In this document: one piece after another, positions 10,896 to 32,300 of the stretch
Numbering within the stretch: the first letter of the stretch is position 1
Layout: the number at the start of each line of letters is the position of its first letter
NCBI GenBank assembly: GCA_964611555.1
Contig: CAZTAI010000002.1
Coordinates: 1-32,764, forward strand
From: an uncultured Chloroflexota bacterium
GTDB taxonomy: Bacteria > Chloroflexota > Limnocylindria > P2-11E
DNA: 32,764 nt
Reading direction: 5' to 3'
Translations under genes and position numbers: made by a program
The notes under the pieces: model-generated
Seen by the model: only the letters and a program-made list of their open reading frames with translations
Told to the model about the DNA's origin: nothing
Database searches by the model: none

Positions 10896-10939
10896 GGTGA
10901 CAAATGCACTGGCCGCTTAGCGGGTGACAGATTCACTGG
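10896..10939 (+). repeat. Two 17-bp direct repeats GGTGACA(A/G)AT(G/T)CACTGG
   Basis: GGTGACAAATGCACTGG at 10896-10912 and GGTGACAGATTCACTGG at 10923-10939 (15/17 identical, 27-nt register). They lie at or overlap the most upstream possible start of the second iclR gene. Confidence 0.7.
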
Positions 10940-12367: not shown

Positions 12368-12511
12368 AGGTGTTCCAGTCCCGACCAATCGGCTCTCCGA
12401 CTCTGACGCGACAACATCGCCCGTACCGTTCGCGGGAGCACGACTGGATCCTTGGCGGTGCCGGACCGGGCCGGGCCGTCCGGACACGCTGAGGAGCGAG
12501 AGGAGGAAGAG

Positions 12512-14890: not shown

Positions 14891-15774
14891 GCCGGCGCAG
14901 CCCGCTCGCCTGGGTGCTGTTGTACGTGGGCGCGGGCCTGCTCGGGCTGTTCACGCTCGCGCCGATCGCCCTCAGCCTGATCGCGAGTGTGACGCCGGAT
15001 GCCGGCCTGCTCTCGTTCCCCCCGGACTGGTTCCGGTACGGCCTCACCACCGACAACTACAGGTACATCTTCACGGGCGAGATCCCGCAGTCGTTCATCG
15101 TCCGCGGCGACATCCGGAGCATGATCTCTGAAGAAATTCGCAATGTCCCCGGCGCTGTCGTGAACAGCTTCCGCGTCGCCCTCGTGGCCATGTTCCTCAA
15201 CGTGGTGTTCGGTTCGATGGCCGCCTACGCCATCGCCCGGCTCCGCTGGCGTGGCCGAAACGCCGTCTTCAACTTCCTGTTGGGCAGCCGGCTCATCCCG
15301 GCCGTGGCACTCGCGCTGCCCTACTACGCCATCGTCCAGGGCCTCCGGCTGCTCGATAACCCGCTCTCGCTGATGCTGATCTACACCGTGCTTGCGTTGC
15401 CCTTGACGATCCTGCTGTTGACGGCGACGTTCCTTCGGATCCCCAGGGCGATCGAGGAGTCCGCCCAGCTCGACGGGCTAGGGCCGTTCCAGGTCCTGCT
15501 CCGGATCACGGTGCCGCTCGCCGCGCCGGGTGTCGTGGGCACGGCGCTCTTCGCCTTCATGCTCTCGTACAGCGAGTTCCTGTTCGCTCTCCTGCTGGCG
15601 ACGCGCCAGGAGACCCGGACTCTTCCGGTGAGCCTGGCCAGCGTCTCGGTGAACCCGGACGTGTCGGTCGGCCTTCTGCATGCAGCCATCGTCATCGGGA
15701 TCCTCCCGACGCTCCTTCTGGCGGTGCCCATCTGGCGGTTCATGGTCCAGGGGCTCTCCGAAGGGGCCGGGTAG
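14887..15774 (+). CDS. Sugar ABC transporter permease (MalG/UgpE-like, BPD_transp_1)
   Basis: 295 aa. EAA loop (IPRAIEESAQLDGLGPFQVLLRITVP). GTGA overlap with the preceding permease at 14887-14890. Confidence 0.9.
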   Translation: MSRRSPLAWVLLYVGAGLLGLFTLAPIALSLIASVTPDAGLLSFPPDWFRYGLTTDNYRYIFTGEIPQSFIVRGDIRSMISEEIRNVPGAVVNSFRVALVAMFLNVVFGSMAAYAIARLRWRGRNAVFNFLLGSRLIPAVALALPYYAIVQGLRLLDNPLSLMLIYTVLALPLTILLLTATFLRIPRAIEESAQLDGLGPFQVLLRITVPLAAPGVVGTALFAFMLSYSEFLFALLLATRQETRTLPVSLASVSVNPDVSVGLLHAAIVIGILPTLLLAVPIWRFMVQGLSEGAG

Positions 15775-15789
15775 CCGCGGCCTGGATCG

Positions 15790-16839
15790 GTGGACGCCGT
15801 CCGCCTTGGCCTGATCGGCGCGGGCGCCATGGGTCGTCTCCACGCCTCGGTCATCCGCGACTTGCCTGATGCGGAGCTGTTGGCCGTTGCGGAACCCGAT
15901 GCCCGCGCGATTGACCTCATCCGGACCATCGTCCCGGATGCGCGCACCTACGACGACCATGCAGCAATGTTCCTGGATGAGTCGCTCGACGCCGTGGTCG
16001 TCGCGACCCCGGAGTCCCTCCATCGGGCGCCCGTGGAGGCCGCTGCTCGGCACGGCCTTCATGTGTTCGTGGAGAAACCGATGGCCCTTGACCCCGTCGA
16101 TTGCGACGCGATGCTCGAGGCCTGCGGCGCCGCCGGCGTCCGTTTCATGGTGGGCTACATCTTGCGGTTCGAGCCCGCCTACGCGGCACTCCACGCGGCG
16201 GTCGAGGCCGGCCGGTTCGGACGCCCGGTCGCCATGTACGCACGACGCTGCGCGACGATCCAGGAGGCGCGCCGGCTCGGCGGACGAGTGTCGGCCCTCG
16301 AGTACATCGGTGTGCACGACATCGATCAGGTGCTCTGGCACCATGCCGCACCCGTCCGTCGCGTGAGCGCCCGCGCCGCGCGCGGGCGCGTCTGGGAGGA
16401 GCTCGGGACGCCCGACACCATCTGGACGACGATCGAGTTCGAGGATGGGGCGACCGCCGTCACCGAGGCCGGCTGGGCACTTCCAGAAGGGTGGGGCGGG
16501 TGGGCCCCACCGCCGGGCTGGGCGCCCTTCGGTGACGTACGCTTCGACCTGACCGGCACCGCGGGGTTCGGTTCGATCGACCTGCGTCAGATGAACCTGG
16601 TCGGGATCGACGATCATGGCTGGATGTTCCCGGAGACGCGACATTGGCCGCTGGTGGCGGGTGGTGTCGGCGGGGCGCTTCGAGCGGAGGTCGAGCACTT
16701 CGTGCGTTGCGTCCGCACCGGTCAGCGACCGCTGGTCGACGGCGACCAGGGCCGGGAGGTGACGCGCCTCCTCGCTATGGCCAGGCGGTCGCTGGCCGAA
16801 GACCGGGACGTCGCGTATCGGGAGTTGCTCGCATGGTGA
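15790..16839 (+). CDS. Gfo/Idh/MocA-family NAD(P)-dependent oxidoreductase (copy A)
   Basis: 349 aa. N-terminal Rossmann LGLIGAGAMG, the family EKP motif (VFVEKPMA), VGYILRFEP. Confidence 0.88.
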   Translation: MDAVRLGLIGAGAMGRLHASVIRDLPDAELLAVAEPDARAIDLIRTIVPDARTYDDHAAMFLDESLDAVVVATPESLHRAPVEAAARHGLHVFVEKPMALDPVDCDAMLEACGAAGVRFMVGYILRFEPAYAALHAAVEAGRFGRPVAMYARRCATIQEARRLGGRVSALEYIGVHDIDQVLWHHAAPVRRVSARAARGRVWEELGTPDTIWTTIEFEDGATAVTEAGWALPEGWGGWAPPPGWAPFGDVRFDLTGTAGFGSIDLRQMNLVGIDDHGWMFPETRHWPLVAGGVGGALRAEVEHFVRCVRTGQRPLVDGDQGREVTRLLAMARRSLAEDRDVAYRELLAW

Positions 16840-17612
16840 GCTACCGTTGGGCTGAGCTGACCTGGCCGGAGATCGCCGCCGCCGTCGAGCGCGACCCGGT
16901 AGTCATCGTGCCTCTTGGATCGATCGAGCAACACGGGCCGCACCTCCCGCTATCCACAGATACGGACATCGGCCTCGCGCTCGCCGACGCGGCCGCCAAG
17001 ATGGCCGATGGCCGCCGCATCCCTGTCATGGTCACGCCGCCGGTCTGGACGGGCTACTCGCCGCACCACATGGACTTCCCGGGCACCATCACCCTTGAGC
17101 CCGAGACCTTCATGGCCGTCGTCGGCGACGTCGCCGGGAGCCTGTACCGCCACGGTGTTCGGCATCTCCTGCTGCTGAACAGCCACGGCGGGAACATCTG
17201 GCTTGCCAAGGCGGCCGCCGACCGGATCGCCGTCCAAACTGGCCGGTCACCGATCGTCTGCACGTACTGGCATCTCATCGCCAACGAGGCGCAGGCTGGC
17301 CGCCGCTCACCACCCGGTGGGATGGGCCACGCCTGCGAGCTGGAGACCTCCCTGCAGCTCCGGCTCGATCCGGCACGGGTCCGGACCGACCGGCTGGCGC
17401 CGAGCGTCATCCCGCCCACGAGCCCCTACCACCACGTGGAGATGTTCGCGGCGAACCGCGTCGCGCTCTATAAGCCATTCAAGGAGTACTCGCCCTCGGG
17501 GGTCATCGGCGACCCGACACTCGCCACCCCCGAGCTGGGCGAACGGATCTTCCAAGCAACAGTGGAGGCGATCGTCGATGTCTGCGCCGAGATCCACCGT
17601 GGCCGCCTCTGA
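16833..17612 (+). CDS. Creatininase-superfamily metal-dependent hydrolase (copy A)
   Basis: 259 aa from ATG 16833, with an ATGGTGA overlap on the upstream stop. The track ORF starts at 16644, but the upstream part is Arg/Gly-rich antisense-like sequence. Family motifs are GSIEQHGPHLPLSTDTD, NSHGGN and GHACELETS, so the metal and catalytic positions are retained. Confidence 0.88.
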   Translation: MVSYRWAELTWPEIAAAVERDPVVIVPLGSIEQHGPHLPLSTDTDIGLALADAAAKMADGRRIPVMVTPPVWTGYSPHHMDFPGTITLEPETFMAVVGDVAGSLYRHGVRHLLLLNSHGGNIWLAKAAADRIAVQTGRSPIVCTYWHLIANEAQAGRRSPPGGMGHACELETSLQLRLDPARVRTDRLAPSVIPPTSPYHHVEMFAANRVALYKPFKEYSPSGVIGDPTLATPELGERIFQATVEAIVDVCAEIHRGRL

Positions 17613-19077
17613 GCCGGCCGGCGCCGGCCGGAGCATCCCGCATCTCAAGCACTTCATCGCCGGGCAGTGGGTTGAGAGCGGGTCGGGCAGGACCTTCCCG
17701 GCCTTCAACCCCGCCACGGGCGAGATCATCGCCCACCTGGCCGAGGGGGACCGCGAGGACGCCGACCGGGCGATCGGCGCGGCGAATCGAGCGCGCGACA
17801 CGATGCGCAGGATGAGCACCTGGGACCGCTCGCGTCTCTGCCGCCGCATCGCCGACGTCATGGAGACCCACCGCGACGAGCTGGCCCACTGGCTGAGCCT
17901 CGACCAGGGCAAGCCCCTGCACGGCGAAGCGCGCGCCGAGGTTGCCGCCGCCATCACCGGCTTCCAGGAGGCGGCCGAGCAGGTCAAGTGGCTCGAGAGC
18001 CAGGTCATCCCGGTCGAGGATCCCGCCAAGCGGGTTCTCACGTTCCGTCAAGCTCGCGGGGTCTACGCCGTGATCACGCCCTGGAACTTCCCGCTCAACA
18101 TCCCGATCGAGTATCTCGGGCCAGGGCTGGCGACCGGCAACGCCATCGTCTGGGCGCCGGCGCCGACGACGTCGGTCATCGCCATCAAGCTGGCCGAGAT
18201 GCTCCAGGAAGCGGACCTGCCGGCCGGTGCGGTCAACGTCGTGACGGGGCCGGGACCGATCGTGGGTGACCAGATCGTCGCGAGCCGCGGCACGGACGCC
18301 GTGGGTTTTACGGGCTCGAGCGCGACCGGAGAGGCCGTCGCCCGTCGGGCCGCCGGGAAACCCGTCCTGATGGAGCTCGGTGGCAACGGTCCGACGATCA
18401 TCTGCGACGACGCCGACCTCGAGCGAGCCGCCCAGGCGACAGCCTTCGGCGCCTTCTTCAACGCCGGCCAGGTCTGCTCGGCAGCCGGGCGCGTCCTCGT
18501 CCCCGAGCGGCTCCAGGAGCCCTTCGCCGAGCTCCTCGCCGGACACGCCCGTGAGATCCGCCTCGGAGACCCCTTCGACGAGGCCACGACCATGGGCCCG
18601 CTGAACAATCCGGCGGTTGCGGAGAAGGTCGACCGTCACCTCAGGGATGGCCTCGAGCTGGGCGCTCGGGTCGTTGCAGGCGGCGGGCGGGCATCCGGGC
18701 TCGGATCGGACCTCTTCTATCACCCTACGGTCCTCGTCGAGGTTCCGCCCGAGAGCGCGCTGGGCCGCGAGGAGACATTCGGGCCGGTCGCCCCGATCAT
18801 CCCGTTCCGGGACGACGACGATGCGATGCGGATCGCCAACGGCGGCGAGCTGGGCCTGGTCGCAGCCGTCTTCACCTCGAACATGAAACGCGCCTGGTGG
18901 TTCGCCGAGAATCTCCGGGCCGGGCTCGTCAACATCAACGAGCACTCGAACTACTGGGAGCTGCACATTCCCTTCGGTGGCGTCGCAGGGAAACGGAGTG
19001 GCGTGGGCCGCGTCGGTGGCAAGCACGCGCTGATGGAGATGACCGATCTGCGCACCGTGGCCTTCGACCTGCGCTGA
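17578..19077 (+). CDS. Aldehyde dehydrogenase family protein (copy A)
   Basis: 499 aa from ATG 17578, with GGAGG 9 nt upstream; GTG 17599 is an alternative. The track ORF starts at 17203 inside the previous gene. Motifs: ITPWNFPL, FTGSSATG, MELGGNGP, NAGQVCSAAGR (catalytic Cys) and PFGGVAGKRSG. Confidence 0.9.
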   Translation: MSAPRSTVAASEPAGAGRSIPHLKHFIAGQWVESGSGRTFPAFNPATGEIIAHLAEGDREDADRAIGAANRARDTMRRMSTWDRSRLCRRIADVMETHRDELAHWLSLDQGKPLHGEARAEVAAAITGFQEAAEQVKWLESQVIPVEDPAKRVLTFRQARGVYAVITPWNFPLNIPIEYLGPGLATGNAIVWAPAPTTSVIAIKLAEMLQEADLPAGAVNVVTGPGPIVGDQIVASRGTDAVGFTGSSATGEAVARRAAGKPVLMELGGNGPTIICDDADLERAAQATAFGAFFNAGQVCSAAGRVLVPERLQEPFAELLAGHAREIRLGDPFDEATTMGPLNNPAVAEKVDRHLRDGLELGARVVAGGGRASGLGSDLFYHPTVLVEVPPESALGREETFGPVAPIIPFRDDDDAMRIANGGELGLVAAVFTSNMKRAWWFAENLRAGLVNINEHSNYWELHIPFGGVAGKRSGVGRVGGKHALMEMTDLRTVAFDLR

Positions 19078-19145
19078 GGATCCAGACAAGGCGCAGACCG
19101 CCCGGTCGACCGGCCGAGATCCTGTCGCTGCCCGAAGTCGGTCAT

Positions 19146-19164
19146 CCCCGCGCTCGCCGCGGGG
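19146..19164 (+). terminator. GC hairpin downstream of ALDH copy A (possible weak/I-shaped terminator)
   Basis: CCCCGCG-ctcgc-CGCGGGG: a perfect 7-bp stem with a 5-nt loop, 69 nt after the stop at 19077. No U-tract follows, and a gene with its own SD starts at 19183. Confidence 0.3.
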
Positions 19165-19182
19165 TCACGTTGAGGAGAATTC

Positions 19183-19497
19183 TTGAGCAAGGAGGCCGTC
19201 TTCACCCCCAACGCCCCTCGCCCGGTGGCCTCGTACTCACAGGCCGTCCGCAAGGCCAACATCCTGGTCATGCCCGGCCAAGGAGGCTTCGACGCCACCA
19301 CCGACAAGCTGGTCGGTCCGGAGGTCGAGGAGCAGACCCGCCGGACCCTCCGCAACCTGCGACTCGTGGCGGGCAAGAACGGATCCCGGTCCAGCACCTG
19401 GCCCTCGATGAACCGTCCGACGTCCCGGGTGGCATCGCCCACGGAACCGATCGTCCCGATTGTTCAATGCATTTCTCCTGTGATCGCGTCCTGCTGA
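19183..19497 (+). pseudogene. RidA/YjgF/L-PSP family gene with the C-terminal half replaced (probably non-functional)
   Basis: TTG start behind GAGGAG. Residues 1 to about 62 (MSKEAVFTPNAPRPVASYSQAVRKANILVMPGQGGFDATTDKLVGPEVEEQTRRTLRNLRLV) match the RidA family pattern. From about 19370 the frame reads unrelated Ser/Pro-rich sequence. No other frame restores the conserved C-terminal half. The ORF tail overlaps the convergent M81 gene by 34 nt. Confidence 0.55.
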
Positions 19498-21035
19498 GCT
19501 GCCGCCGTCGATGCCAGCCTCGGATCGAGGGTTATCAGGCCGCCAGGAAACGACTCGTCGAGCGGATAGATTGGTCGCCGGACGTTGCGGTACTGGAAGC
19601 GCCTGGGGTCGGGATTGGTAATGCCCGGGGTATCGACCTCGATGATCGACCCGGCCACACGTTCGATGACCTCGAATCTGTGGCGAAAGACCGCCGCGGA
19701 CTGGACGACGACGATCCGCTTCTCGCGGGGCTCCACCCCGTAGCGCCGGAAGTACTCGGGACCGATCTGGCTCGTGGGATGTTGGGTAAGGATGACGTCC
19801 GTCGCGCCGCATCGGACGACGGCGACACGTCCCGGGTCGGCGAAGAGGTCCGTCCCGGATTCTGCTCGTTCGGCCAGGAATTGGACCCGCCCGCCGATCT
19901 GGCATGGGTCGCCGTTCGAAGGCTCGAAATGTCCGCCGACAGCCAGGTCGATCCTGGCACCGACCCCGGCCTCAATACAGGCGGCGACCGCCGCCGGATC
20001 TCGAATGAACAGCGCAGCGTCCGGCCAATCGTGAGCGATGAACTCTGTCAGTATCGCAGTCCCGTCTCCGGGGCTGCCACCCGCGGCGTTATTGCCCTCG
20101 TCGGCCAGCACCACGGGCCAGGCCTCAGTCCTGAGGGCGCGCTCCACGGCCTCGGCCGGCGGGGTCATCACGAGAGACGTGTCAAAACCCCGCCGAAGTC
20201 GCCAGGCGAGCTCCGCCAGTTCGTTGGCATAGTCGGCCGCCAGCTCAGGCGCACCATCCGTGTGGACGAGGATCGATATGCCCGCCTCGGGGACGTCGGC
20301 GTCGCCGAATCCGGCATTGATCGAGATGTTCACTACCCGCGGGTCGCGTTCGAGCTCAGCTGCCCGTTGCGACAGCCAGAACAGGGGCGGCTTGATGAGC
20401 GCAAGCGGCGCCTCGGTGAGGCTCATGAGCCCACCCTTGAGGAGGATCGGCGGTCTGCGGATGGCGGCCGTCGAATGGATCTCGGCCCGGAGCAGGCGAG
20501 CGATCACGGAGGCCGCCTCAACACCCCGCTCCACCATGTCGAGGTGCGGGGTCGTCTTGTAGGCGATCGCGACATCGGCGAAGTCGAGCCATCGCGGACC
20601 GACGTTGCCATGGGCATCGTTGACAGTGACGATCGGACGGTCAGGGCCGACTGCCGCCCGGATACGACGGAGCAACTCGGTCTCTGGATCGGCGAATGTC
20701 TCGCTCGCCCCCGCCCCGTGGAGGTGGAGGAGAACCGCATCCGGATGCGACGCCCGAATCGACGTCTCCAATTGCTCGGCCGCCCACTCAAATGCGTCCT
20801 TCGTGATGATGCCCGTGAACGGCCCCGCGGAGGCGAAGAACGCCGGCACGACGTCGAGCCCTTGGTCGCGGAGCCCCGAGGCGAAGCCGCTCAGAACAGG
20901 CTGTGCTCCGTCGAAGGCTTCGTCCATCTCGCCGATCCAGGTGCGCCCGGGCCGCTCTTCAAAGGACGACCGTGAGGTCGGCAGCGGATTGAAGGTGTTC
21001 GTTTCGTGCCAGAGCCCCCCGACGGCCACCCGCAT
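19464..21035 (-). CDS. M81-family metallopeptidase (MlrC-like)
   Basis: 523 aa. The N-terminus MRVAVGGLWHETNTFNP is characteristic of the MlrC/M81 N-terminal domain. The length fits the two-domain architecture. Last gene of the minus-strand operon. Confidence 0.82.
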   Translation of the reverse strand: MRVAVGGLWHETNTFNPLPTSRSSFEERPGRTWIGEMDEAFDGAQPVLSGFASGLRDQGLDVVPAFFASAGPFTGIITKDAFEWAAEQLETSIRASHPDAVLLHLHGAGASETFADPETELLRRIRAAVGPDRPIVTVNDAHGNVGPRWLDFADVAIAYKTTPHLDMVERGVEAASVIARLLRAEIHSTAAIRRPPILLKGGLMSLTEAPLALIKPPLFWLSQRAAELERDPRVVNISINAGFGDADVPEAGISILVHTDGAPELAADYANELAELAWRLRRGFDTSLVMTPPAEAVERALRTEAWPVVLADEGNNAAGGSPGDGTAILTEFIAHDWPDAALFIRDPAAVAACIEAGVGARIDLAVGGHFEPSNGDPCQIGGRVQFLAERAESGTDLFADPGRVAVVRCGATDVILTQHPTSQIGPEYFRRYGVEPREKRIVVVQSAAVFRHRFEVIERVAGSIIEVDTPGITNPDPRRFQYRNVRRPIYPLDESFPGGLITLDPRLASTAAAQQDAITGEMH

Positions 21036-21038
21036 CGG

Positions 21039-22355
21039 TCAGCCGGGAACGGGCGTCGCGGTGCGGCGCAGCGCAGCGGCGACCCGTTCGATCGTGGTCT
21101 CGATGTCCGCGTCCGTATGGGCCGTCGACACGTACCACATGCCTCGCTGGAGGCAGAGAATGCCGTCGTAGAGGACGGCCTCGGCGAATCGCCCGTATGC
21201 GGCCCCGTCAACCTTGATGAAGTCGCGGTAGTCCCGTAGGGGACGATCGCTGCCGAAGCTGACCGTGAACGCCGGACCGATGCCGTCCGCCGTCGCCTCG
21301 ATCCCGGCCGAACGGGCCGCGTCGAGGATCCCATCGCGGAGTCGATCCCCGAGCCGGCTCAGCCGCTCGTAGACCGCCCCGCCGTCGGCACTGAGTTCGG
21401 CCAGCGTCGCATTTGCCGCGGCGAGGGCTATCGGACTGCCGTTGAACGTTCCCGCGTGGATCACCTCGCGGGTGGCGACGAGCTCCATGATCGAGCGCTT
21501 GCCGGCCACGGCGCTGATGGGGAAACCTCCGCCCAGTGCCTTCCCGAAGATTGCCAGGTCGGGCACCACCCCGAACCGCTCCTGGGCGCCTCCGAGGGCG
21601 ACCCGGAAGCCGGTGATCACTTCATCGAAGATGAGGGCCACCCCGTACCGATCGCACAGAGAACGCAGTCCCTCGAGATATCCGGGCAGTGGTGTGATCC
21701 CGCCCGAGTTGCACATGACGGGCTCGGTCAGGATCGCTGCGATCTCTCCGGATCGCGCGCGCAGGACCTGCTCGACGAGCTCGAGGTCGTTCCACGGCAG
21801 GACGATCGCCTCCTGAACCGCCGAATCGAGCTGCCCCCGACCCATCGGCACGGGCGTGGGCTGGTCTCGTGGTCCAAGCTGGTCCTCTGTTCCCCGGTAG
21901 CTGACGAGGACGTTGTCAAGCCAGCCGTGATAGTGGCCCTCGAACTTGATGAAGCGCCGACGCCCGGTTACGGCGCGGGCGAGCCTGAGCGCGACCTGGA
22001 CGGCTTCGGTCCCGGTAGTGCTGAAAACGACCAGGTCGGCACAGGCAACAAGTTCGTGGATTCGTTCGGCAACCTGCGGCTCCAACTCGTGCTGAGCGCC
22101 GTATGCCTGGCCCCGTGCGAGCTGCTGAGAGACGGCTTCGAGGACTCGCGGGTGGCTGTGACCGAGGATCGTCGGGCCGAATGCCAGCGTGTAGTCGATG
22201 AATTCGTTTCCGTCGACATCGACTAGACGCGAGCCGAAACCACGGTCGAAGTACAGGGGCAGCGGCTTGGCGTCGGCGCGCATCATCGTGCTCACGCCCC
22301 CGGCAAGATGGCGGCGCGCACGCTCGTAGAGGACGCGTGATCGCTCGAAGTTCAC
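21039..22355 (-). CDS. Class-III (PLP-dependent) aminotransferase, glutamate-1-semialdehyde aminomutase-like
   Basis: 438 aa. LAGGVST...R, FIDY..AFGP.ILGH, STTGTEAVQVALRLARAVTGR, FEGHYHGW, LIFDEVITGFR and the PLP-lysine context FGKALGGG. GTGA overlap with the upstream ALDH at 22352-22355. Confidence 0.9.
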   Translation of the reverse strand: MNFERSRVLYERARRHLAGGVSTMMRADAKPLPLYFDRGFGSRLVDVDGNEFIDYTLAFGPTILGHSHPRVLEAVSQQLARGQAYGAQHELEPQVAERIHELVACADLVVFSTTGTEAVQVALRLARAVTGRRRFIKFEGHYHGWLDNVLVSYRGTEDQLGPRDQPTPVPMGRGQLDSAVQEAIVLPWNDLELVEQVLRARSGEIAAILTEPVMCNSGGITPLPGYLEGLRSLCDRYGVALIFDEVITGFRVALGGAQERFGVVPDLAIFGKALGGGFPISAVAGKRSIMELVATREVIHAGTFNGSPIALAAANATLAELSADGGAVYERLSRLGDRLRDGILDAARSAGIEATADGIGPAFTVSFGSDRPLRDYRDFIKVDGAAYGRFAEAVLYDGILCLQRGMWYVSTAHTDADIETTIERVAAALRRTATPVPG

Positions 22356-23842
22356 AGCGTCGTCTCCACTCTGGGCTCGACGTCAATGACGATGGTCTTG
22401 AGCTGGCTGAGCTCCTGGATCGTGAAGCGCCCTCCGAGTCTGCCGAGCCCGCTGCGCTTGCCCGCATAGCCTCCGAATGGCGTGTGGGGCTGCCAGTAAG
22501 TGGGGCACTCGTTCACGTTGACGATGCCGCTCTGCAAGCGCTCCGCGTAGTAGTAGGCTCGGGCGAGATCGCGCGTGAAGATGGCCGAGACGAGCCCAAG
22601 CTCGCCCGCGTTCGCGAGCTCGATCGCCTGTTCATCGGTGCTGAACGTCAGGACGGGTGCGACCGGACCGAAGGTCTCGTACTCGCTGATGAGCATCTCG
22701 GGAGTCACCTCGTCGATCACTGTCGGTTCGTAGTAGAGCGTCGTCGGGAAGCCCGGCGCGCGGCGGCCGCCAGCCAGGATCCTTGCTCCCCGGCTCACTG
22801 CGTCTTGAAGGTGATCGTCGACCTTGCGCGCGGTCGCCTCGTTGTTGAGCGGGCCCATGGTCGAGGCCGGATCGAGCGAAGGCCCGAGGTGCACCCGCGC
22901 TGCACGCTCGACCAGTCCTTGGACGAACGCGTCATGGACTGACTCGTGAACCAGGATCCGCTCGGTCGAATCACAGATCTGTCCGGCGTTAGAGAAACAG
23001 CCGAAGGCAACCCGATCGATCGCGCGGTCGAGGTCCGCGTCTGCCGCGACGATCGCCGGGCCGTTGCCCCCGAGCTCGAGCAGGAGCTTCCGAGTGCCCG
23101 CCTGAGCCGCGATCGCCTCGCCCGTGGACGAGCTTCCGGTCGCCCCGATGGCCGTCACCGTCCGGTCCTTCGTGAGCTCGCGCGCGATGACTGCGCCTGC
23201 GCCGAGGACGAGGTTGATGACACCCGCCGGGAGGCCGGCGTCGATCGCGCACTCCAGGAGGCGGACGGCGATGATCGGTGTGTTGCGCGCCGGCTTCCAG
23301 ACGACCGTATTACCCGCGGCGAGGTTGGCGGCAAGGTACTCGGACGGGATCGCGAGGGGGAAGTTCCAGGGGGTGATCACACCGACCACTCCGAGGGGCT
23401 CCCGGACCACGTAGATCCGCTTGGCAGGATCGAGCGACGGCAGGGCCTCGCCGCTCAGACGCTTCACATCTTCGGCGGCGTCGTGGAACATCTCCGCCGC
23501 GACGCTCACTTCATCGCGCGCCTCCGCCAGCGGCTTGCCCTGCTCGCTCGAGAGGTCCGCCGCCATACTTTCCCGCCGGCGCATCAGCTCGTCTCCGATC
23601 GCATGGCAGAGACGCGCACGCTCGGCAATCGACGATCGCCGATAGGTGTGCGAAGCAGTGCCGGCCGCGACGATGGCCTGCCGGACGTCGCCCGGGGTGG
23701 CCGCGCGGGCCCGGGCCAGGAGCTCGCCCGTGGCCGGGCTTTGCACCGGGAACTCCTCCCCATGAGCGGCGGTCCACCGGCCACCGGTCCAGGGCCGCAG
23801 GGTGAGGGTTCCGGGCGCGCGGGGCGGGGTCTGGATGTTCAT
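22352..23842 (-). CDS. Aldehyde dehydrogenase family protein (copy B)
   Basis: 496 aa. ITPWNFPL, ATGSSSTG, LELGGNGP, NAGQICDSTER (catalytic Cys) and PFGGYAGKRSG. Clearly a paralog of 17578-19077. ATGA overlap with iclR at 23839-23842. Confidence 0.9.
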   Translation of the reverse strand: MNIQTPPRAPGTLTLRPWTGGRWTAAHGEEFPVQSPATGELLARARAATPGDVRQAIVAAGTASHTYRRSSIAERARLCHAIGDELMRRRESMAADLSSEQGKPLAEARDEVSVAAEMFHDAAEDVKRLSGEALPSLDPAKRIYVVREPLGVVGVITPWNFPLAIPSEYLAANLAAGNTVVWKPARNTPIIAVRLLECAIDAGLPAGVINLVLGAGAVIARELTKDRTVTAIGATGSSSTGEAIAAQAGTRKLLLELGGNGPAIVAADADLDRAIDRVAFGCFSNAGQICDSTERILVHESVHDAFVQGLVERAARVHLGPSLDPASTMGPLNNEATARKVDDHLQDAVSRGARILAGGRRAPGFPTTLYYEPTVIDEVTPEMLISEYETFGPVAPVLTFSTDEQAIELANAGELGLVSAIFTRDLARAYYYAERLQSGIVNVNECPTYWQPHTPFGGYAGKRSGLGRLGGRFTIQELSQLKTIVIDVEPRVETTL

Positions 23843-24750
23843 CGAGCTGACTCCTGCTCATCTGACTCCCGGTCTGACGGGTGACCAATCCCGGGTCGTA
23901 GGTAGCCGAGCTGTTCGGAGACGAGCCGCGCCGCTTCCTGGGCCGCGCCTCCCAGCTCCGGCAGGCGCTCGAGCGTCATCCGGCTTGCGGGGCCAGAGAT
24001 GCTGATGCCGGCGACCACGTCGCCGCCGTGACTGAGCACGGAAGCGGCGACGCAGCGCGCTCCGGGTTCATTCTCCTCATCATCGGCCGCATACCCTCGC
24101 TCGCGCGCTGTCCGGAGCTCCGCGAGGAAACGCGCCTGATCGCCGATGGTTCGGGCCGTCTTTGGATGCAGCCCGAACCGCCGGATGTGGTCCACGACGA
24201 AGGCCTCGGACTCCGAGGCCAGCATCGCCTTGCCGAGCGCTGTCGAGTGCAGATCGTCCGTCGAGCCGACGCTTGCGGCCATGCGGAGGCTCTGGGGGCT
24301 CTCCAGAATGTCGATGTAGGCGATGCGCCCGTCGACTCGAACGGCCAGATTGACCGTTTCGCCGGACCGCTCCTGAAGCTGCTCGAGGAAGGGGCGCGCG
24401 ATCGCGCGGAGATCGAGCCCGGCCGAGACGCGGCCACTCAGGTGGATGAGCTTGAGGCCGAGCCCGTAGCGGCCGGTATCACGGTCGCGCTGAACGTACC
24501 CCCGCCGTTCCAGGTTCGTCAGGATTCGGAAGGCCGTGACCTTGTGCAGGCCAGCCAGGGCGGCCACCTCGCTCTGACCGAGGCTGGGCCGGTCGGCCAA
24601 CAGCTCGAGGACGTCGAGGGCACGACTCAGCGCCGCGATCTCGTAGGAGCGGCGATCGGCCGAATCCCTGGAACGGACGGCGGCACGCGACCGTGCGGCA
24701 GGACGCCCCGCCGAGCCTGTTCGAAGGTCGGTGCGTTCAGTGTCAATCAA
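23839..24750 (-). CDS. IclR-family transcriptional regulator embedded in the operon
   Basis: wHTH (LSRALDVLELLADRPSLGQSEVAALAGLHKVTAFRILTNL) plus effector domain (VNLAVRVDGRIAYIDILES, LHSTALGKAMLA, GYAADDEENEPGARCVAASV). Proposed start is TTG 24748-24750 with AAGGAGG 9 nt upstream, overlapping the creatininase stop (TTGATTGA). The track ORF extends to 24855 inside the upstream gene. Confidence 0.85.
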   Translation of the reverse strand: MIDTERTDLRTGSAGRPAARSRAAVRSRDSADRRSYEIAALSRALDVLELLADRPSLGQSEVAALAGLHKVTAFRILTNLERRGYVQRDRDTGRYGLGLKLIHLSGRVSAGLDLRAIARPFLEQLQERSGETVNLAVRVDGRIAYIDILESPQSLRMAASVGSTDDLHSTALGKAMLASESEAFVVDHIRRFGLHPKTARTIGDQARFLAELRTARERGYAADDEENEPGARCVAASVLSHGGDVVAGISISGPASRMTLERLPELGGAAQEAARLVSEQLGYLRPGIGHPSDRESDEQESAR

Positions 24751-25534
24751 CCTGTGTGCCCTCCTTGATTGGCAGTGGCAGGCCGCGGAACACGGCCAGA
24801 AAGTCGACAAGCCTTGAGGCGGACGTCTCGAGGATCCGCTCGCCGAGCTCGGCACTTGCGCTTGACGGGTCGCCGTAGATCCCGGACGGCGATTCGAGAC
24901 TCGGGTCGGGAGGCATCAGCGCGACGCCGGCGAATTCTGGAGGCAGAAGCGAACGAGCCGGCGATCCGGAGGGTGGATCGGCGAGGGCCGCGACGAGCTG
25001 CGGGCGAAGGGCGAGCTGGAGGGAGGTCTCGATTTCGCCGGCGTGGCCAATCCGTCCGCCGTCGGTCGTGCTCTCCCGCCTCATGACGTCCTCGGCGAAG
25101 CTCCAGTAGCTGGCCCCTGCCGCTCTGATCCCGCGGCTCGCAAGGCGGACGGTGACGTTGTGCATCACTCCGACGTTGCCGGCATGGCCGTTCAGGATCA
25201 TGACCCGGAGAAAGCCGTCCCGAGCAATGCTCATGCACACATCCCACAGCAGATTTTCGAGCGTCTGGGGCGCGAGAGCGATCGTGCCGCCGAAAGGCAT
25301 CCAGTACTCGGATACGCCCCACCAAACGCAGGGCGCGACAACGACTGGAAACGGGGCGGCTGCGGCTGCACGGAGTGCGACCGCTTCGACCGTATGGGAA
25401 TCCGTGTCGACGGGCAGGTGGGGACCGTGCTGCTCAACCGAACCGATCGGCACAACGACGACGGCGCCCTCGGTAGCAAGGGCCGCCAAGGCCTCCCGGG
25501 TCTGGGTCTGCCACTGAATGGCCCTAACTGGCAT
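24743..25534 (-). CDS. Creatininase-superfamily metal-dependent hydrolase (copy B)
   Basis: 263 aa from ATG 25532-25534, with an 11-nt overlap (ATGCCAGTTAG) on the upstream stop. Motifs: GSVEQHGPHLPVDTD, NGHAGN and GHAGEIETS. The track ORF extends to 25720 inside the upstream gene. Confidence 0.88.
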   Translation of the reverse strand: MPVRAIQWQTQTREALAALATEGAVVVVPIGSVEQHGPHLPVDTDSHTVEAVALRAAAAAPFPVVVAPCVWWGVSEYWMPFGGTIALAPQTLENLLWDVCMSIARDGFLRVMILNGHAGNVGVMHNVTVRLASRGIRAAGASYWSFAEDVMRRESTTDGGRIGHAGEIETSLQLALRPQLVAALADPPSGSPARSLLPPEFAGVALMPPDPSLESPSGIYGDPSSASAELGERILETSASRLVDFLAVFRGLPLPIKEGTQVD

Positions 25535-26564
25535 CTGCGACCTCGAATTCGGACAGGCGGATCGTTCGGCGCTCGGTTGCCGAACGCTCCATCGCGAGGG
25601 ACAGCCGGAGGGCTTCGATCCCATCCTGCAGGGTGATGATGGGCTGCACATCTCGGCGGATGCAGTCGAGGAAATGGCGAACCTCGTTCGCCAGGGCTCC
25701 ACCGGGTACTCCCCAAACATCCGTCCAGAAGGTCACATCCAGGGCGGGATGGAGCGCTGTCGAGGCCGACTCACTCCAGACCTCGAGCCCCGTCAGCCCC
25801 TGCTCGATCCGCAGCCATCCCTTGGCGCCGGTGACAGTCAACCCGCTCGTCGGCGCCCGCACGGCGGCCGGCGGGATGTGCCAGCCGAGCTCGGCCGAGG
25901 CCAGGACACCGTTGGCGAACTCGACCACGGCGACGTACAGGTCATCCACGTCGTAGCCGGCCTCGCGAAGCCTTCCCTCCCGCCGGGCGGCGTAGATCGT
26001 GGTCGCCTCGGCCGCCGCGAACCAACGAAGGATGTCGAGGTCGTGGACACCGTAGTAGAGGGGAATCGTCGTCCGCCCACGGAGAACGTCCTGGTCGAGG
26101 ATGTTGCCGACCCGCCGGCTCGAGATGCTGACGACCTCTCCAAGGTCGCCCGACTCAACGATCTGGCGTGCGGCGGCCCAGCGCGGCTCGAACCGGAGCA
26201 GGTGGCCGACCATCGCCAGGGCGCCGTGAGACGCAGCGGCCGCGGCGATCTCGGCGGCCGCTCCGAGCGAGTGCGCGACAGGTTTCTCGATGAGCACCGG
26301 CTTGCCTGCCTGGAGTGCAGCGACCGCCGCTTCCGTGTGCTGGTCCTCGGGTGTGCACACGAACACGGCGTCGACCTGAGGAGATGCAGCGAGCTCCGTG
26401 GCTTCCCCGAAGATCACTGCTCCCGTCGCCTGCGCCACCTCCGCAGCCACCTCCGACCGAACGTCGCAGACAGCCCGGAGCTCGACGCCTTCGAGCCGGC
26501 TCAGAACGTGGACGTATCGACGTCCCATGAAGCCGAGACCGATGACCCCGACGCGGATGTTCAC
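25524..26564 (-). CDS. Gfo/Idh/MocA-family NAD(P)-dependent oxidoreductase (copy B)
   Basis: 346 aa from GTG 26562-26564, with a GTGA overlap on the upstream ATPase stop. Motifs: [18 protein letters not shown] and VGHLLRFEP. The track ORF extends to 26735. Confidence 0.88.
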
Positions 26565-27616
26565 CGGACGGCACCCACCACGGAGGACCTCGCCGTCGGG
26601 CCCATCTGAGCCAGGGTCCGTTCGTGCATCTGGGCCGCCTCTGCCCTCGTGGCGTTTGGACCCGCGAGTGCATAGTGGCAGGCGGCCATGTGGCCAGGGA
26701 TCCACTCCCTGAGGGCCGGCCTGTCCGTCCGGCAACGCGCCTGCGCGATCGGGCAGCGGGGGTGGAACTTGCAGCCCGGGGGTGGGTTGCCCGGATCCGG
26801 CGGCTCCCCTTCAAGCTTGACCGGAGTCTGGCCATTCGTGCGCAGCGACGGCACGGCGGAGAGGAGCGCCCGGGTGTACGGGTGCAGGGCGCGGCTGTAA
26901 ACCTCGTCGGCCGAACCGATCTCGACGATCTCACCGAGGTACATCACCGCGATCCGGTGGCTCATGTACTTCACGACCCCGAGGTCGTGCGAGACGAACA
27001 GATAGGTCAGCCCGTGTCGTTCCTGGAGATCCTTGAGAAGGTTGAGGATCTGGGCCTGGACCGAGACGTCGAGCGACGAGACCGCCTCATCGGCGACCAG
27101 GAGGGACGGCTCGACCGATAGCGCCCGCGCAATCCCGATTCGCTGACGCTGGCCGCCACTGAACTGGTAGGGGAACCGGGAAGCCGTTTCGGGCTTGAGG
27201 CCGACGTCGTCGAGCAAGCGCGCCACACGCTCGTGGACCAGGCGACGATCGCCGATTCGGTGGATGAGCAGGGGGTCCGCGACGATGTCGCGCACGCGCA
27301 TCCGAGGTGGAAGCGAGGTATATGGGTCCTGGAAGACGATCTGGGCCCTCCGCCGCAATCGACCGGCGCTCCGCTCGTTGAGGAGTTCGCCGCCGAAGAA
27401 GACCTCCCCGCTGGTGAGCGGCTCCAGGAAGAGAAGCGTCTTAGCCAGGGTCGACTTCCCGGAGCCGCTCTCGCCCACGAGTCCGAGCGTCTCCCCTTCA
27501 TCGATCGTGAACGAGACGCCATCCACGGCCCGGACGACACGGGGGGCGCGTCCGAACAAGCCCGGACGAGTCACAAACTGCTTGGTCAGGTTCCGGACCT
27601 CGACCAGCGGCGCCAT
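26561..27616 (-). CDS. Dipeptide/oligopeptide-type ABC transporter ATP-binding protein (DppF/OppF-like)
   Basis: 351 aa from ATG 27614-27616, 1 nt after the upstream stop. Motifs: [39 protein letters not shown] and the C-terminal oligopeptide-ABC domain ([17 protein letters not shown]). Confidence 0.9.
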
Positions 27617-27617
27617 G

Positions 27618-29570: not shown

Positions 29571-29575
29571 TGGGC

Positions 29576-30493: not shown

Positions 30494-30571
30494 ATGTCGA
30501 GCCTCTATTCAGCGCCGGCCCATCGCGGCGATGCCCTCGGGTCCCCTTAGCTCAGGGACGCACTGAGACCA

Positions 30572-32233: not shown

Positions 32234-32253
32234 GGCTGGCCTCCTCGTCACAA

Positions 32254-32279: not shown

Positions 32280-32300
32280 CAACCATTGCGACCAGCGCAA

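Follow-up and report, generated by a model that had tools for sequence, protein, structure and literature searches.

A described system of relevance to the locus analysed here is the inositol route of the Thermotoga type, in which the creatininase-family enzyme IolN (3-dehydro-scyllo-inosose hydrolase, an NCBIfam equivalog) acts as a C-C hydrolase. To our knowledge, IolN is the only creatininase-family enzyme known to act after a Gfo/Idh/MocA dehydrogenase (Gfo), and its route requires no aldehyde dehydrogenase (ALDH). A preliminary description of a window of 32,764 nucleotides from an uncultured Chloroflexota bacterium (the whole stretch of DNA analysed) had referred to this route soundly, and had reported that Gfo, a creatininase-fold metal hydrolase (Cre) and ALDH occur twice within 15,790-26,564, in convergent operons, without a characterised pathway to account for the trio. 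Indeed, both cassettes were located there, all six core proteins match their respective Pfam families, and no description of the trio was found in the literature searched. The genes of cassette A, and those upstream of it, are as follows.

7839-8804, + strand: KDG/KDGal-kinase-like PfkB protein (Pfam; 291 bits on the KDG/KDGal kinase model, cut-off 440)
8853-9605, + strand: Amidohydro_2 protein (Pfam)
9725-10372, + strand: Eda aldolase (Pfam; passes TIGR01182, 169 bits vs. a cut-off of 156)
10924-11868, + strand: IclR-family regulator heading cassette A (Pfam IclR_C and HTH_IclR)
11889-12290 (end approximate), + strand: eda pseudogene, frameshifted remnant of cassette A's own KDPG-aldolase gene (match to L007 Eda)
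12452-13912, + strand: CUT1-type solute-binding protein (SBP; Pfam SBP_bac_1)
13946-14890 and 14887-15774, + strand: two CUT1 permeases (both Pfam BPD_transp_1)
15790-16839, + strand: oxidoreductase Gfo-A (Pfam GFO_IDH_MocA N- and C-terminal domains)
16833-17612, + strand: hydrolase Cre-A (Pfam Creatininase, 254 bits, full length)
17578-19077, + strand: ALDH-A, of the YWE.H.PFGG..G.RSG subfamily (Pfam Aldedh, 498 bits)

Cassette B is encoded on the opposite strand.

19464-21035, - strand: M81 (MlrC-like) metallopeptidase, last gene (Pfam DUF1485 and MlrC_C)
21039-22355, - strand: class-III aminotransferase, GSA-aminomutase-like (Pfam Aminotran_3)
22352-23842, - strand: ALDH-B (Pfam Aldedh, 495 bits)
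23839-24750 (longest ORF to 24855), - strand: IclR-family regulator (Pfam IclR_C and HTH_IclR)
24743-25534, - strand: hydrolase Cre-B (Pfam Creatininase, 200 bits)
25524-26564, - strand: oxidoreductase Gfo-B (Pfam GFO_IDH_MocA N- and C-terminal domains)
26561-32380, - strand: Dpp/Opp-type ABC importer (Pfam), comprising the next four features
26561-27667, - strand: DppF (Pfam)
27618-29570, - strand: fused DppC-DppD (Pfam)
29576-30493, - strand: DppB (Pfam)
30572-32380, - strand: SBP_bac_5 (Pfam)

Gene content and synteny could be observed directly. The order IclR–[KDG-kinase–Eda]–CUT1–Gfo–Cre–ALDH of cassette A is a unit recurring in related Chloroflexota MAGs, and cassette B is a recurrent ten-gene operon (SBP5–DppB–DppCD–DppF–Gfo–Cre–IclR–ALDH–transaminase–M81). 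The overlapping junctions and the two different importers noticed earlier were both borne out: ORFs overlap by 7 nt (Gfo-A/Cre-A) and 35 nt (Cre-A/ALDH-A) in cassette A, and by 11 nt (Gfo-B/Cre-B), 4 nt (IclR/ALDH) and 4 nt (ALDH/aminotransferase) in cassette B. The operons converge on a gap of 386 nt (19078-19463), in which a simple consensus scan detected no terminator-like site. The start of the cassette B IclR is more likely the in-frame TTG at 24750, which overlaps the Cre-B stop by 8 nt, than 24855; the syntenic regulators in L190 and L191 are 272-279 aa long and occupy the same position, so that this gene is not an insertion, contrary to what had been proposed. For ALDH-A, gene calls in close relatives use another possible start, some 21 nt further downstream. 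A second IclR, absent from the preliminary description, heads cassette A; it is 44% identical to that of cassette B and 74-95% identical to the regulator at the head of this operon in L001, L007 and L174, and its top NCBIfam models, BhcR and KdgR, do not reach their cut-offs.

The paralogues of the two cassettes share 31% identity (Gfo, E 1e-37), 38% (Cre, E 6e-38) and 48% (ALDH, E 4e-161) by BLASTP, and catalytic and metal-binding residues are retained in both copies. The motifs previously quoted are visible in these alignments, namely EKP, VG..LRFEP, GVHD.D and GGAL..EV.HF..C.R in Gfo, GS.EQHGPHLP..TD, N.H.GN and GH..E.ETS in Cre, and ITPWNFPL.IP.EYL, ELGGNGP, NAGQ.C and the YW..H.PFGG.AGKRSG tail in ALDH. 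When neighbourhoods were sampled around 160 other creatininase-family genes (31-44% identity), plus the A-clade relative L007 (87% identical), an ALDH of this subfamily adjoined the creatininase-family gene in only three loci (L007, L066 and L150). Therefore, two such arrangements inside 11 kb are not a chance pattern.

Cre adjoins ALDH, in many cases with ORFs that overlap, in the A clade (the window, L001, L002/3, L007 and L174/5), in the B clade (the window, L005, L006, L190, L191 and one JGI contig), and also in Rubrobacteraceae (L066), the metagenome contig L150, Rhizobium sp. ACO-34A (L182), Limnochordales (L171-173), Halobaculum magnesiiphilum (L183) and Haladaptatus (L185), so that the pair ranges from Chloroflexota to haloarchaea. 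All Cre-linked ALDHs share the tail YWE.H.P[FAV]GG..G..SG.GR.GG, and ALDH-A reaches no NCBIfam equivalog. Among five plasmid records with a subfamily ALDH at E<=1e-100, Cre is adjacent in three and 14 kb away in one. Co-inheritance is directly visible in the identity matrices of Cre and ALDH, which are correlated across nine non-redundant loci (Mantel r=0.69, p~0.002). Judged from these sequences, Cre and ALDH are functionally coupled; this coupling is frequent and not obligatory, since some ALDHs of the subfamily stand alone (Armatimonadota) or lie in an operon devoid of Cre (L176). Deep relationships are incongruent (ALDH-A is 61% identical to the Limnochordales ALDH, and Cre-A 31% to the Cre adjoining it), and the partners have evidently been re-assorted during evolution.

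The position of Gfo is less constant. Gfo-A scores best on the IolG model (142 bits, below the cut-off of 355) and matches PDB entry 3ezy (E 2.6e-24), and Gfo-B stays below the cut-offs of its best NCBIfam models, archaeal UDP-GlcNAc 3-dehydrogenase (166 bits, cut-off 450) and IolG (158 bits, cut-off 355). A GMC oxidoreductase occupies the Gfo slot in L150 and L182, and the Limnochordales, Halobaculum and Haladaptatus loci carry Cre and ALDH without Gfo; Gfo is thus not universal, the conserved core being the Cre–ALDH pair, and the fixed order Gfo, Cre, ALDH initially envisaged is not established. In L184 even Cre is replaced, by Amidohydro_1 (order Amidohydro_1-ALDH-FAH-?-GMC, with a CUT1 importer alongside). 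The combination of a CH-OH oxidoreductase, a metal hydrolase and an ALDH of the Cre-linked subfamily is, hence, a logic recurring with non-homologous parts.

Our best explanation, put forward tentatively and at slightly less than an even chance, is that each cassette is an inducible catabolic front end (both contain an IclR regulator) that would oxidise, hydrolyse and again oxidise an imported polyhydroxy, probably nitrogen-bearing solute, for instance an amide, a lactam or a compound of the amino-sugar type. Bond type, step order and substrate class are inferred, the first two from family chemistry and neighbouring genes. Gfo, often present though replaceable, would serve as a feeder step in which NAD+ is used to oxidise a CH-OH group, either secondary or on a ring; the binuclear-metal Cre would break a carbonyl-heteroatom bond (amide or lactam, possibly lactone) rather than a C-C bond; and ALDH would then turn the product, once opened or released, into a carboxylate at its aldehyde end. 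In cassette A, the product would proceed through a KDG/KDGal-type kinase and a KDPG-type aldolase to pyruvate and glyceraldehyde-3-phosphate. In cassette B, the Dpp-type importer would take up a peptide- or amino-acid-linked analogue, to be trimmed by the M81 peptidase, and the transaminase would yield an aldehyde or ketone from a primary amine.

The proposed exit of cassette A is suggested by its relatives, which carry IclR-PfkB-Eda directly within the operon; their PfkBs reach 274-333 bits with the KDG/KDGal-kinase model, while their aldolases pass the TIGR01182 eda cut-off. In the window, about 1.2 kb has been lost compared to L007, comprising the gene for the PfkB/KDG-kinase-like protein and the 5' part of eda, and the remnant matches residues 81-176 of L007 Eda in three different frames. 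The genes at 7839-10372 are possible surrogates for those lost. In L176, an ALDH (65% identical) and an SBP (55%) are joined to IclR-Eda-PfkB-YjgF. The link between the ALDH product and KDG kinase is incomplete, because Pfam revealed no dehydratase yielding a 2-keto-3-deoxy acid in cassette A or elsewhere in the window. The cassette A SBP is 81-90% identical to those of L001 and L007, and its PDB matches, all distant, are di- and oligosaccharide binders.

In cassette B, the SBP is nearest, among PDB entries, to GsiB/YliB, HbpA, DppA, AgaA and AccA, and its importer gene order, permease-ATPase fusion included, is that of L190 and L191. The aminotransferase approaches GntE (408 bits, cut-off 525) and the HemL subfamily (396 bits, cut-off 398), and its nearest PDB entries are GSAMs. 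The M81 protein matches microcystinase C (7ylq) and 3iuu, and its position is conserved in L190, L191 and the Halobaculum locus. Aminotransferase followed by M81 is a recurrent pair in its own right, e.g., in Microvirga. The B clade, L066, L182 and L183 are accompanied by transaminases of class III or V, by RidA, and by peptidases of the M81 or M20 type. More distant Cre genes in Cohnella, Natrinema and Haloprofundus neighbour MR_MLE, RidA, M81, a DHDPS-type aldolase or KdgK-Eda. Such companions (transaminases, RidA, M81/M20 peptidases, MR_MLE, and KDG kinase together with Eda) favour a substrate of the nitrogen-bearing or sugar-acid type over the plain cyclitol considered initially. Cassette A itself contains no nitrogen-handling gene, and its substrate may be a nitrogen-free sugar.

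A second alternative is that Cre cleaves a C-C bond, for which IolN provides a precedent, heteroatom-bond hydrolysis thus not being the sole one. Equivalents of P. putida E34, H36, D45, H120, E183 and H178 are invariant in both hydrolases (in Cre-A, ligands E32, H34, D43, H118 and E171, and catalytic H166), so that the five metal ligands are all kept, as had been stated, and with them the catalytic His. At the creatinine-binding positions Y121, E122, D155 and W174, in contrast, the residues are G/A, G, H/S and M/I. By its sequence, Cre is a competent metalloenzyme with a pocket differing from the creatinine-binding one. Neither hydrolase reaches the NCBIfam cut-offs of creatininase, MftE, IolN or ArfB (the latter gave no match with Cre-A), and neither belongs to a characterised orthologous group. 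IolN-like ring cleavage is unlikely, given the weak scores on its model (88 and 52 bits vs. 245), the absence of the IolM and IolO partners and a route that dispenses with ALDH.

The reading of the two cassettes as diverged duplicates, put forward in the preliminary description, is weakened by L174, which is 92% identical across cassette A and is followed by unrelated genes, with no cassette B beside it, and by the closer relatives that Cre-A and ALDH-A each have elsewhere (the Limnochordales ALDH shares 61% identity with ALDH-A, against 47-48% for ALDH-B). As part of the same explanation, and with the same not quite even confidence, cassettes A and B would be old, separately inherited versions of the module, juxtaposed here, rather than copies that arose by duplication in this genome. 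From that description, the joint action of the trio has gained support, while duplication, a universal Gfo and C-C opening have not: synteny of the full trio extends to independent contigs for each type (A in L001, L007 and L174/L175; B in L005, L006, L190 and L191), ALDH-B shares 61-64% identity with its counterparts in L005 and L006, and Cre-B orthologues (47-61% identity) are found in syntenic operons.

All the genes named in the preliminary description were confirmed by Pfam scans, which also placed at the head of the plus-strand operon an IclR regulator absent from that list. The two convergent operons, denoted here as cassette A and cassette B, each combine a Gfo/Idh/MocA oxidoreductase (Gfo), a creatininase-fold hydrolase (Cre) and an aldehyde dehydrogenase (ALDH), and are made of the following genes:

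10924-11868, plus strand: IclR regulator of cassette A
12452-13912, plus strand: CUT1 binding protein (SBP-A), followed by two permeases
15790-16839, plus strand: Gfo/Idh/MocA oxidoreductase (Gfo-A)
16833-17612, plus strand: creatininase-fold hydrolase (Cre-A; PF02633, 254 bits)
17578-19077, plus strand: aldehyde dehydrogenase (ALDH-A; PF00171, 498 bits)
32380-30572, minus strand: SBP_bac_5 binding protein (SBP-B), followed by DppB, a fused DppC-DppD and DppF
26564-25524, minus strand: Gfo oxidoreductase (Gfo-B)
25534-24743, minus strand: creatininase-fold hydrolase (Cre-B; 200 bits), with an IclR gene next to it
23842-22352, minus strand: aldehyde dehydrogenase (ALDH-B; 495 bits)
22355-21039, minus strand: class-III aminotransferase
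21035-19464, minus strand: M81/MlrC-like peptidase

Between the cassettes, the Gfo, Cre, ALDH and IclR pairs are 31%, 38%, 48% and 44% identical, respectively (E values from 1e-37 to 4e-161), and every shared motif quoted earlier was found in the A/B pairwise alignments. The nearest public relatives of the window are uncultured Chloroflexota, among them the 'Chloroflexota bacterium' MAG L007 (90-96% nucleotide identity) and a 'Candidatus Limnocylindrales' MAG. The DppC permease and DppD ATPase of cassette B form a single 650-aa fusion (27618-29570, minus strand), which recurs in the syntenic operons of three B-type relatives (L006, L190 and L191). The 33-kb window encodes three IclR regulators (10924-11868, 23839-24855 and 6192-7013); for all three, BhcR was the best NCBIfam model (207-223 bits, cut-off 350) and KdgR the next; no cut-off was reached, and these models were uninformative. 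PDB sequence searches with the Gfo, ALDH, SBP, transaminase and M81 proteins gave generic family matches only and no substrate clue; in them the cassette B transaminase was GSA-aminomutase-like, its nearest structures being GSAMs, with beta-transaminases further off.

Both hydrolases cover profile positions 1-238 of PF02633, for which the gathering cut-off is 31.3 bits, and their sequences leave no ambiguity about the fold. In an alignment of the two window copies with 23 relatives (25 sequences), whose register was checked against 1Q3K and 3A6E, the metal ligands E32, H34, D43, H118 and E171 and the catalytic H166 are invariant; they correspond to Glu34, His36, Asp45, His120, Glu183 and His178 of the P. 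putida creatininase. The claim that both copies keep the creatininase metal-ligand positions thus holds for the five ligands and extends to the catalytic His, and a loss of catalytic residues in one copy was looked for and not found, the Cre and ALDH motifs being intact. The window proteins therefore resemble the P. putida creatinine amidohydrolase (1J2T/1Q3K) in their full-length PF02633 fold, five metal ligands, His178 equivalent and Trp154, but differ from it in the pocket: Tyr121, Glu122, Asp155 and Trp174, which we take from the structural literature to be the creatinine-pocket residues, are replaced in Cre-A and Cre-B. The creatininase segment NGHYEN becomes NSHGGN in A and NGHAGN in B, YWD becomes YWH or YWS, and GWDIEHGG becomes GGMGHAC or GRIGHAG.

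The top named model for both hydrolases was MftE (TIGR03964; Cre-A 139.3 and Cre-B 125.9 bits, cut-off 172), while the creatininase model TIGR04448 (EC 3.5.2.10) gave 114.7 and 101.2 bits (cut-off 235), and the ArfB model NF033501 (archaeal FAPy deformylase) gave no match for Cre-A and 26 bits for Cre-B (cut-off 180). All NCBIfam equivalog scores lie below cut-off, which agrees with the view that neither hydrolase belongs to a known orthologous group. A creatinine function was rejected on the score, the replaced pocket residues and the lack of creatinase and sarcosine oxidase genes in the genomic context. The mycofactocin peptidyl-dipeptidase MftE belongs to the same superfamily of metal-dependent C-N hydrolases, but a mycofactocin function was discarded as well, both scores being below cut-off and no mftA-D or radical-SAM genes being found among the window ORFs. 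A riboflavin-type (ArfB) function was dropped on cut-offs and missing partner genes. As for the partners, Gfo-A and Gfo-B match PF01408, PF22725 and PF02894 and align at the EKP lysine motif, and both ALDHs keep, in the alignment, the catalytic Cys (NAGQxC), the general-base Glu (ELGG) and the Asn (PWNFP). The best NCBIfam model for ALDH-A is lactaldehyde dehydrogenase (400 bits, cut-off 650), with KGSA-dehydrogenase models close behind and also below cut-off, and that for ALDH-B is the SSADH subfamily (391 bits, cut-off 646).

The cassettes had been described as a diverged duplicate that is not recent. The pairs are indeed paralogous and diverged, but an origin by duplication in this genome is not sustained. 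A relative that is 92% identical across cassette A (L174) has unrelated genes at the place of cassette B, ALDH-A is closer to many ALDHs from other phyla (61-67% identity) than to ALDH-B (47-48%), and Cre-A is closer to Paenibacillus and Cohnella relatives (44-52%) than to Cre-B (38%). A recent tandem or inverted duplication is excluded by the 31-48% identities together with the relative lacking cassette B. From these comparisons, cassettes A and B most plausibly represent two ancient lineages of one type of module that lie side by side in this organism. A horizontal transfer of cassette B was also considered on composition and dropped; since both cassettes (66-70% G+C) match the window (64-70% throughout), composition is uninformative on this point.

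The expectation that the trio would be co-localised in related genomes was borne out, within two clades. An A-type operon, in the order IclR-[PfkB-Eda]-SBP1-permease-permease-Gfo-Cre-ALDH, is found in L001 (Cre 72% identical), L007 (87%) and L174/L175 (92%). All ten cassette B genes are syntenic in L190 and L191, with Cre about 51% identical, and the B-type operon is found in part in L005, L006 and one JGI contig. The IclR gene of cassette B, regarded at first as inserted, occupies the same position in L190 and L191, and this ten-gene synteny makes it an integral member of the operon. For the wider family, the background consisted of 160 Cre loci at 31-44% identity plus the 87%-identical L007, taken from the GTDB and metagenome matches listed, and thus does not enumerate the members of clades A and B; in it, the subfamily ALDH described next adjoins Cre in 3 of the 161 loci (L007, L066 and L150). 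Among the 161 loci listed, the trio arrangement is no general feature of the wider creatininase family.

The ALDHs of both cassettes fall in a distinct subfamily with the C-terminal signature YWE.H.P[FAV]GG..G..SG.GR.GG, and a creatininase-fold gene is a frequent neighbour of this subfamily across phyla and domains, as the following loci illustrate:

L171-173, Limnochordales: CUT1-ALDH, a convergent Cre, then Dpp
L182, Rhizobium sp. ACO-34A: Cre-ALDH-RidA-GMC
L150, metagenome contig: same type as L182
L066, Rubrobacteraceae: Gfo-AT-ALDH-permease-Cre-ALDH-M20
L183, Halobaculum magnesiiphilum: FAH-MR_MLE-Dpp, ALDH, Cre, class-III AT, M81, RidA, IclR
L185, Haladaptatus: ALDH beside a Cre fragment

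The Halobaculum locus amounts to the cassette B gene set without Gfo, and Cre-ALDH pairs lacking any Gfo occur in several lineages. Five plasmid records carry the subfamily ALDH (E<=1e-100); Cre is adjacent in three of the five and 14 kb away in another. The identity matrices of Cre and ALDH are correlated over nine non-redundant loci (Mantel r=0.69, p~0.002). In Sinorhizobium sp. RAC02 an Amidohydro_1 enzyme occupies the slot of Cre upstream of ALDH, followed by a GMC oxidoreductase and an FAH-family gene, so that this locus follows the same oxidoreductase, hydrolase and ALDH logic with non-homologous components. Members of the ALDH subfamily are also found alone or, as in locus L176, in an operon without Cre; the coupling is strong, not absolute.

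Information on where the route of cassette A leads came from its relatives. The PfkB of A-type relatives matches the KDG/KDGal kinase model best (274-333 bits, cut-off 440), their aldolase scores above the TIGR01182 eda cut-off, and L176 places IclR-Eda-PfkB-YjgF beside an ALDH of 65% and a binding protein of 55% identity. On the strength of the KDG/KDGal-kinase-like PfkB, the Eda of the relatives and the L176 linkage, the route of cassette A most likely ends in a 2-keto-3-deoxy-hexonate, which is then phosphorylated and split. In the window itself, the segment 11889-12290 (plus strand), which seems intergenic between the CUT1 binding protein and the IclR of cassette A, is what is left of a KDPG aldolase gene (eda), now frameshifted. 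Compared with L007, the window lacks about 1.2 kb, the KDG-kinase-like PfkB and the 5' end of eda being deleted, and L174, another close relative, has PfkB and no eda. The exit enzymes of cassette A appear to be decaying in the lineage of the window. Paralogues of PfkB and Eda lie 2-4 kb upstream, and apart from the remnant this Eda is the only one in the window. They form part of a separate sugar-acid-type locus (570-10372):

570-1634, minus strand: DUF4432 protein
1663-4205, minus strand: CUT2 ABC permease and double ATPase
4202-5314, minus strand: 370-aa ORF without family assignment, possibly a binding protein
5393-6274, minus strand: SDR
6192-7013, minus strand: third IclR regulator
7135-7809: RraA-like aldolase/decarboxylase
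after RraA, to 10372: KDG/KDGal-kinase-like PfkB, Amidohydro_2 and Eda

The nature of the substrate is suggested by the partner genes. Cassette B and other Cre-ALDH loci bring in transaminases, RidA imine deaminases and M81 or M20 peptidases, and more distant Cre genes are accompanied by MR_MLE, RidA, M81, a DHDPS-type aldolase or KdgK-Eda, which suggests a polyhydroxy compound with an amide, lactam or amino function. Because the known chemistry of the family is mostly C-N hydrolysis, the most economical assumption is that Cre would hydrolyse a carbonyl-heteroatom bond. ALDH would then act on an aldehyde made available after the Cre step, which in cassette B could arise by transamination of a primary amine. 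A more speculative and rather unlikely reading is that Cre and its dedicated ALDH define an undescribed pathway, conserved in Bacteria and Archaea, in which ring opening or deconjugation by Cre would directly expose an aldehyde, to be turned by ALDH into a KDG-type acid. As candidate reactions, a hemiaminal or glycosylamine could collapse once the amide is cleaved, or a 2-oxoaldehyde (e.g., 3-deoxyglucosone) could be released from an amino-sugar or Amadori-type compound. The resulting 2-keto-3-deoxy acid would feed KDG kinase and KDPG aldolase, and cassette B would be a peptide- or amino-acid-linked version of the same chemistry. Such a pathway could match an orphan activity, for example, a gene-less enzyme of pantothenate or glycated-peptide catabolism.

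It is possible, if rather unlikely, that the cassettes instead serve an oxidative sugar pathway (Weimberg/Dahms or De Ley-Doudoroff-like), with Gfo as an aldose 1-dehydrogenase, Cre as a lactonase of unusual fold and ALDH acting on alpha-ketoglutarate semialdehyde, glycolaldehyde, lactaldehyde or glyceraldehyde, the nitrogen-related neighbours being incidental. In known oxidative pentose pathways, the dehydrogenase, lactonase and ALDH share an operon (e.g., Caulobacter xylXABCD), and these pathways, together with the Haloferax Gfo6 route, resemble the cassettes in joining a sugar dehydrogenase (Gfo-type in haloarchaea), a ring hydrolase, an ALDH and an ABC importer. Gfo and GMC enzymes, which have in common the oxidation of a sugar C1 or ring hydroxyl, replace each other between loci; the A-type operons carry KDG/KDGal kinase and Eda; and the lactaldehyde- and KGSA-dehydrogenase resemblance of ALDH-A, although below cut-off throughout, is in keeping with the proposed substrates. 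The MR_MLE dehydratase-type and FAH-family genes found with Cre or ALDH in Halobaculum, Natrinema, Haloprofundus, Cohnella and Sinorhizobium RAC02 would also fit. However, the Cre fold differs from that of all known sugar lactonases and we know of no creatininase-family lactonase, while a canonical lactonase-type Amidohydro_2 gene is already present upstream. No aldonate dehydratase is encoded in either cassette or in the window, where Pfam scans of the ORFs found no dehydratase family, neither ILVD_EDD nor MR_MLE. Non-consecutive steps would not predict the tight Cre-ALDH coupling, and the frequent nitrogen-handling partners, above all the conserved ten-gene B operon with its Dpp importer, transaminase and M81 peptidase, are left without explanation.

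Just as unlikely is a non-sugar route for an amide, lactam or cyclic amidine, built like the catabolism of ectoine (Doe), lactams or pantothenate. Cre would open or cleave the amide, the primary amine would be transaminated to an aldehyde and ALDH would make the acid, with Gfo or GMC acting on a side-chain hydroxyl and possibly supplying the aldehyde where the transaminase is absent. C-N hydrolysis is the known chemistry of the creatininase family (creatinine, the MftA peptide, formamide), and the B clade and Halobaculum unite Cre, ALDH, class-III transaminase, peptidase and Dpp importer. The best model for ALDH-B is the SSADH subfamily; Rhizobium ACO-34A adds RidA, succinylglutamate-desuccinylase-like and Ser/Thr-dehydratase-like genes reminiscent of eutB and eutE; and a relative on S. 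meliloti pSymA combines a Dpp importer, an M55 peptidase, a hydantoinase/oxoprolinase, a KdgD-like gene and ALDH. Like the ectoine DoeABCD/EutABCDE and lactam systems, cassette B has a hydrolase, a deacylase or peptidase, a class-III transaminase, an ALDH, one regulator and an ABC importer. However, its hydrolase is creatininase-fold and not M24 (DoeA), its peptidase is M81 and not of the AstE/DoeB family, and it has an extra Gfo dehydrogenase and a Dpp-type importer. Neither the DoeA/EutD M24 hydrolase nor the DoeB/EutE deacetylase family was found by Pfam scans in the window, so that only the class-III transaminase and ALDH half of the ectoine-type logic is present. Moreover, cassette A and its relatives lie amid carbohydrate-type genes (CUT1, KDG kinase, Eda, RpiB, Dak, DeoC) and lack the transaminase, and we know of no Gfo/Idh/MocA enzyme that oxidises a primary alcohol.

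The scheme proposed in the preliminary description, oxidation followed by hydrolysis and a second oxidation, is reasonable in outline and is reinforced by the non-homologous replacements. In its strict form, where a ring hydroxyl of a cyclitol or aminocyclitol is oxidised by Gfo, the carbocycle is opened hydrolytically by Cre through an IolN-like C-C or retro-aldol-type cleavage and the aldehyde freed directly in this step passes to ALDH, it is improbable. Its cyclitol/IolN analogy is weak because of the low IolN scores, the single dehydrogenase, a Thermotoga route that needs no ALDH and the Cre-ALDH pairs without Gfo. In its favour, both clades retain the gene order Gfo-Cre-ALDH and the overlaps between ORFs, IolN is itself a creatininase-family hydrolase, and both Gfo proteins have IolG among their top NCBIfam models, the PDB entry closest to Gfo-A being 3ezy, which we take to be T. 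maritima TM0414. The inositol route of Thermotoga reportedly ends at KDG kinase and KDPG aldolase, as do the A-type relatives. It is not known to include an ALDH, transaminase or peptidase. The transaminase, RidA and peptidase partners would go unexplained, and the product of IolN is a keto-acid and not an aldehyde. The match to the IolN model NF041098 (Cre-A 88 and Cre-B 52.2 bits, cut-off 245) is weaker than that to the MftE and creatininase models, and the IolG scores (TIGR04380; Gfo-A 142.3 and Gfo-B 157.9 bits, cut-off 355) indicate that neither Gfo is an IolG equivalog. The Thermotoga maritima route (Rodionova et al. 2013, Environ Microbiol 15:2254) and its IolO step are attested in the citing papers PMC12632266 and PMC3750489. 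The IolG-IolM-IolN-IolO system and the cassettes are alike in encoding a Gfo/Idh/MocA dehydrogenase beside a creatininase-superfamily hydrolase; however, IolN splits a C-C bond of a diketone, which the single dehydrogenase present here cannot make. Neither an IolM-type second dehydrogenase, needed for the beta-diketone on which hydrolytic C-C cleavage depends, nor an IolO-type epimerase accompanies it, Pfam scans of all major ORFs having found no Zn-ADH-type or AP_endonuc_2-type gene in the cassettes or the window.

Finally, a chance clustering of three very common families without a shared pathway is already disfavoured and highly improbable: Gfo, ALDH and IclR are among the commonest families in soil-bacterium genomes and the window packs three IclR genes and three ABC systems into a dense catabolic island, but synteny is kept at 47-72% protein identity across phyla and domains, the overlapping ORFs suggest translational coupling, the ALDH subfamily is specific to these loci, and the pairing occurs in only 3 of the 161 other creatininase-family loci among the matches listed.

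The statement that no characterised pathway is known for this trio agrees with a full-text literature search, which found no description of the trio or of the creatininase family linked to these partners, some queries being swamped by unrelated 'MoCA' and 'IOLN' hits. All components come from well-known families and their organisation is the usual one for catabolic operons, which makes this an uncharacterised operon and no new category of system. To our knowledge, only four activities have been assigned in the creatininase superfamily, of which more than 5,800 relatives (E<=1e-10) turned up in one search, among 8,000 scored candidates. Within this large clade, two Cre sub-clades tied to a specific ALDH subfamily, a CH-OH oxidoreductase and dedicated importers, from soil Chloroflexota to haloarchaea, offer a bounded and experimentally tractable target for a new enzyme function and nutrient route. 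A sugar-like compound containing nitrogen is the likely substrate, and its use by uncultured bacteria that abound in soil and freshwater may be of ecological relevance. Since variants are present in the cultured Halobaculum magnesiiphilum, Rhizobium sp. ACO-34A and Sinorhizobium sp. RAC02, the question can be tested without culturing the source organism.

Several minor observations concern the surrounding genes. A GSA-aminomutase-like transaminase followed by M81 is a recurrent pair, found in the window (19464-22355, minus strand), in L183 (11430-14368) and in L188, a Microvirga lotononidis plasmid (12001-14794), where it is accompanied by two further M81 genes and IclR without Cre or ALDH; the two genes seem to form a sub-module that can be separated from the rest. 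Cohnella candidum (L004, 4065-5267) and a Natrinema gelatinilyticum plasmid (L179, 5807-6973) both encode a protein of some 390-400 aa that matches neither Pfam nor NCBIfam models, with 24% identity (E 8e-30) between the Bacillota and the haloarchaeal locus. In both it adjoins a CUT1 importer in a cluster with Cre and MR_MLE, and this family may belong to a related pathway. The ALDH-only relative L176 also carries, 7 kb further downstream (region 14797-16931), a creatininase-family gene of greater divergence, directly after Fer2_2 (small) and FAD_binding_5 (medium) subunits of xanthine-dehydrogenase/CO-dehydrogenase type, with no large subunit between; here the family has another kind of gene context. 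In Thermomicrobium roseum DSM 5159, a cultured organism of the Chloroflexota/Thermomicrobia lineage, the megaplasmid (L180, 7971-9670) carries a creatininase-family gene with 36-38% identity to each of the window copies. It overlaps the pyrroline-5-carboxylate-reductase-family gene downstream of it, in what looks like a recurring pairing.
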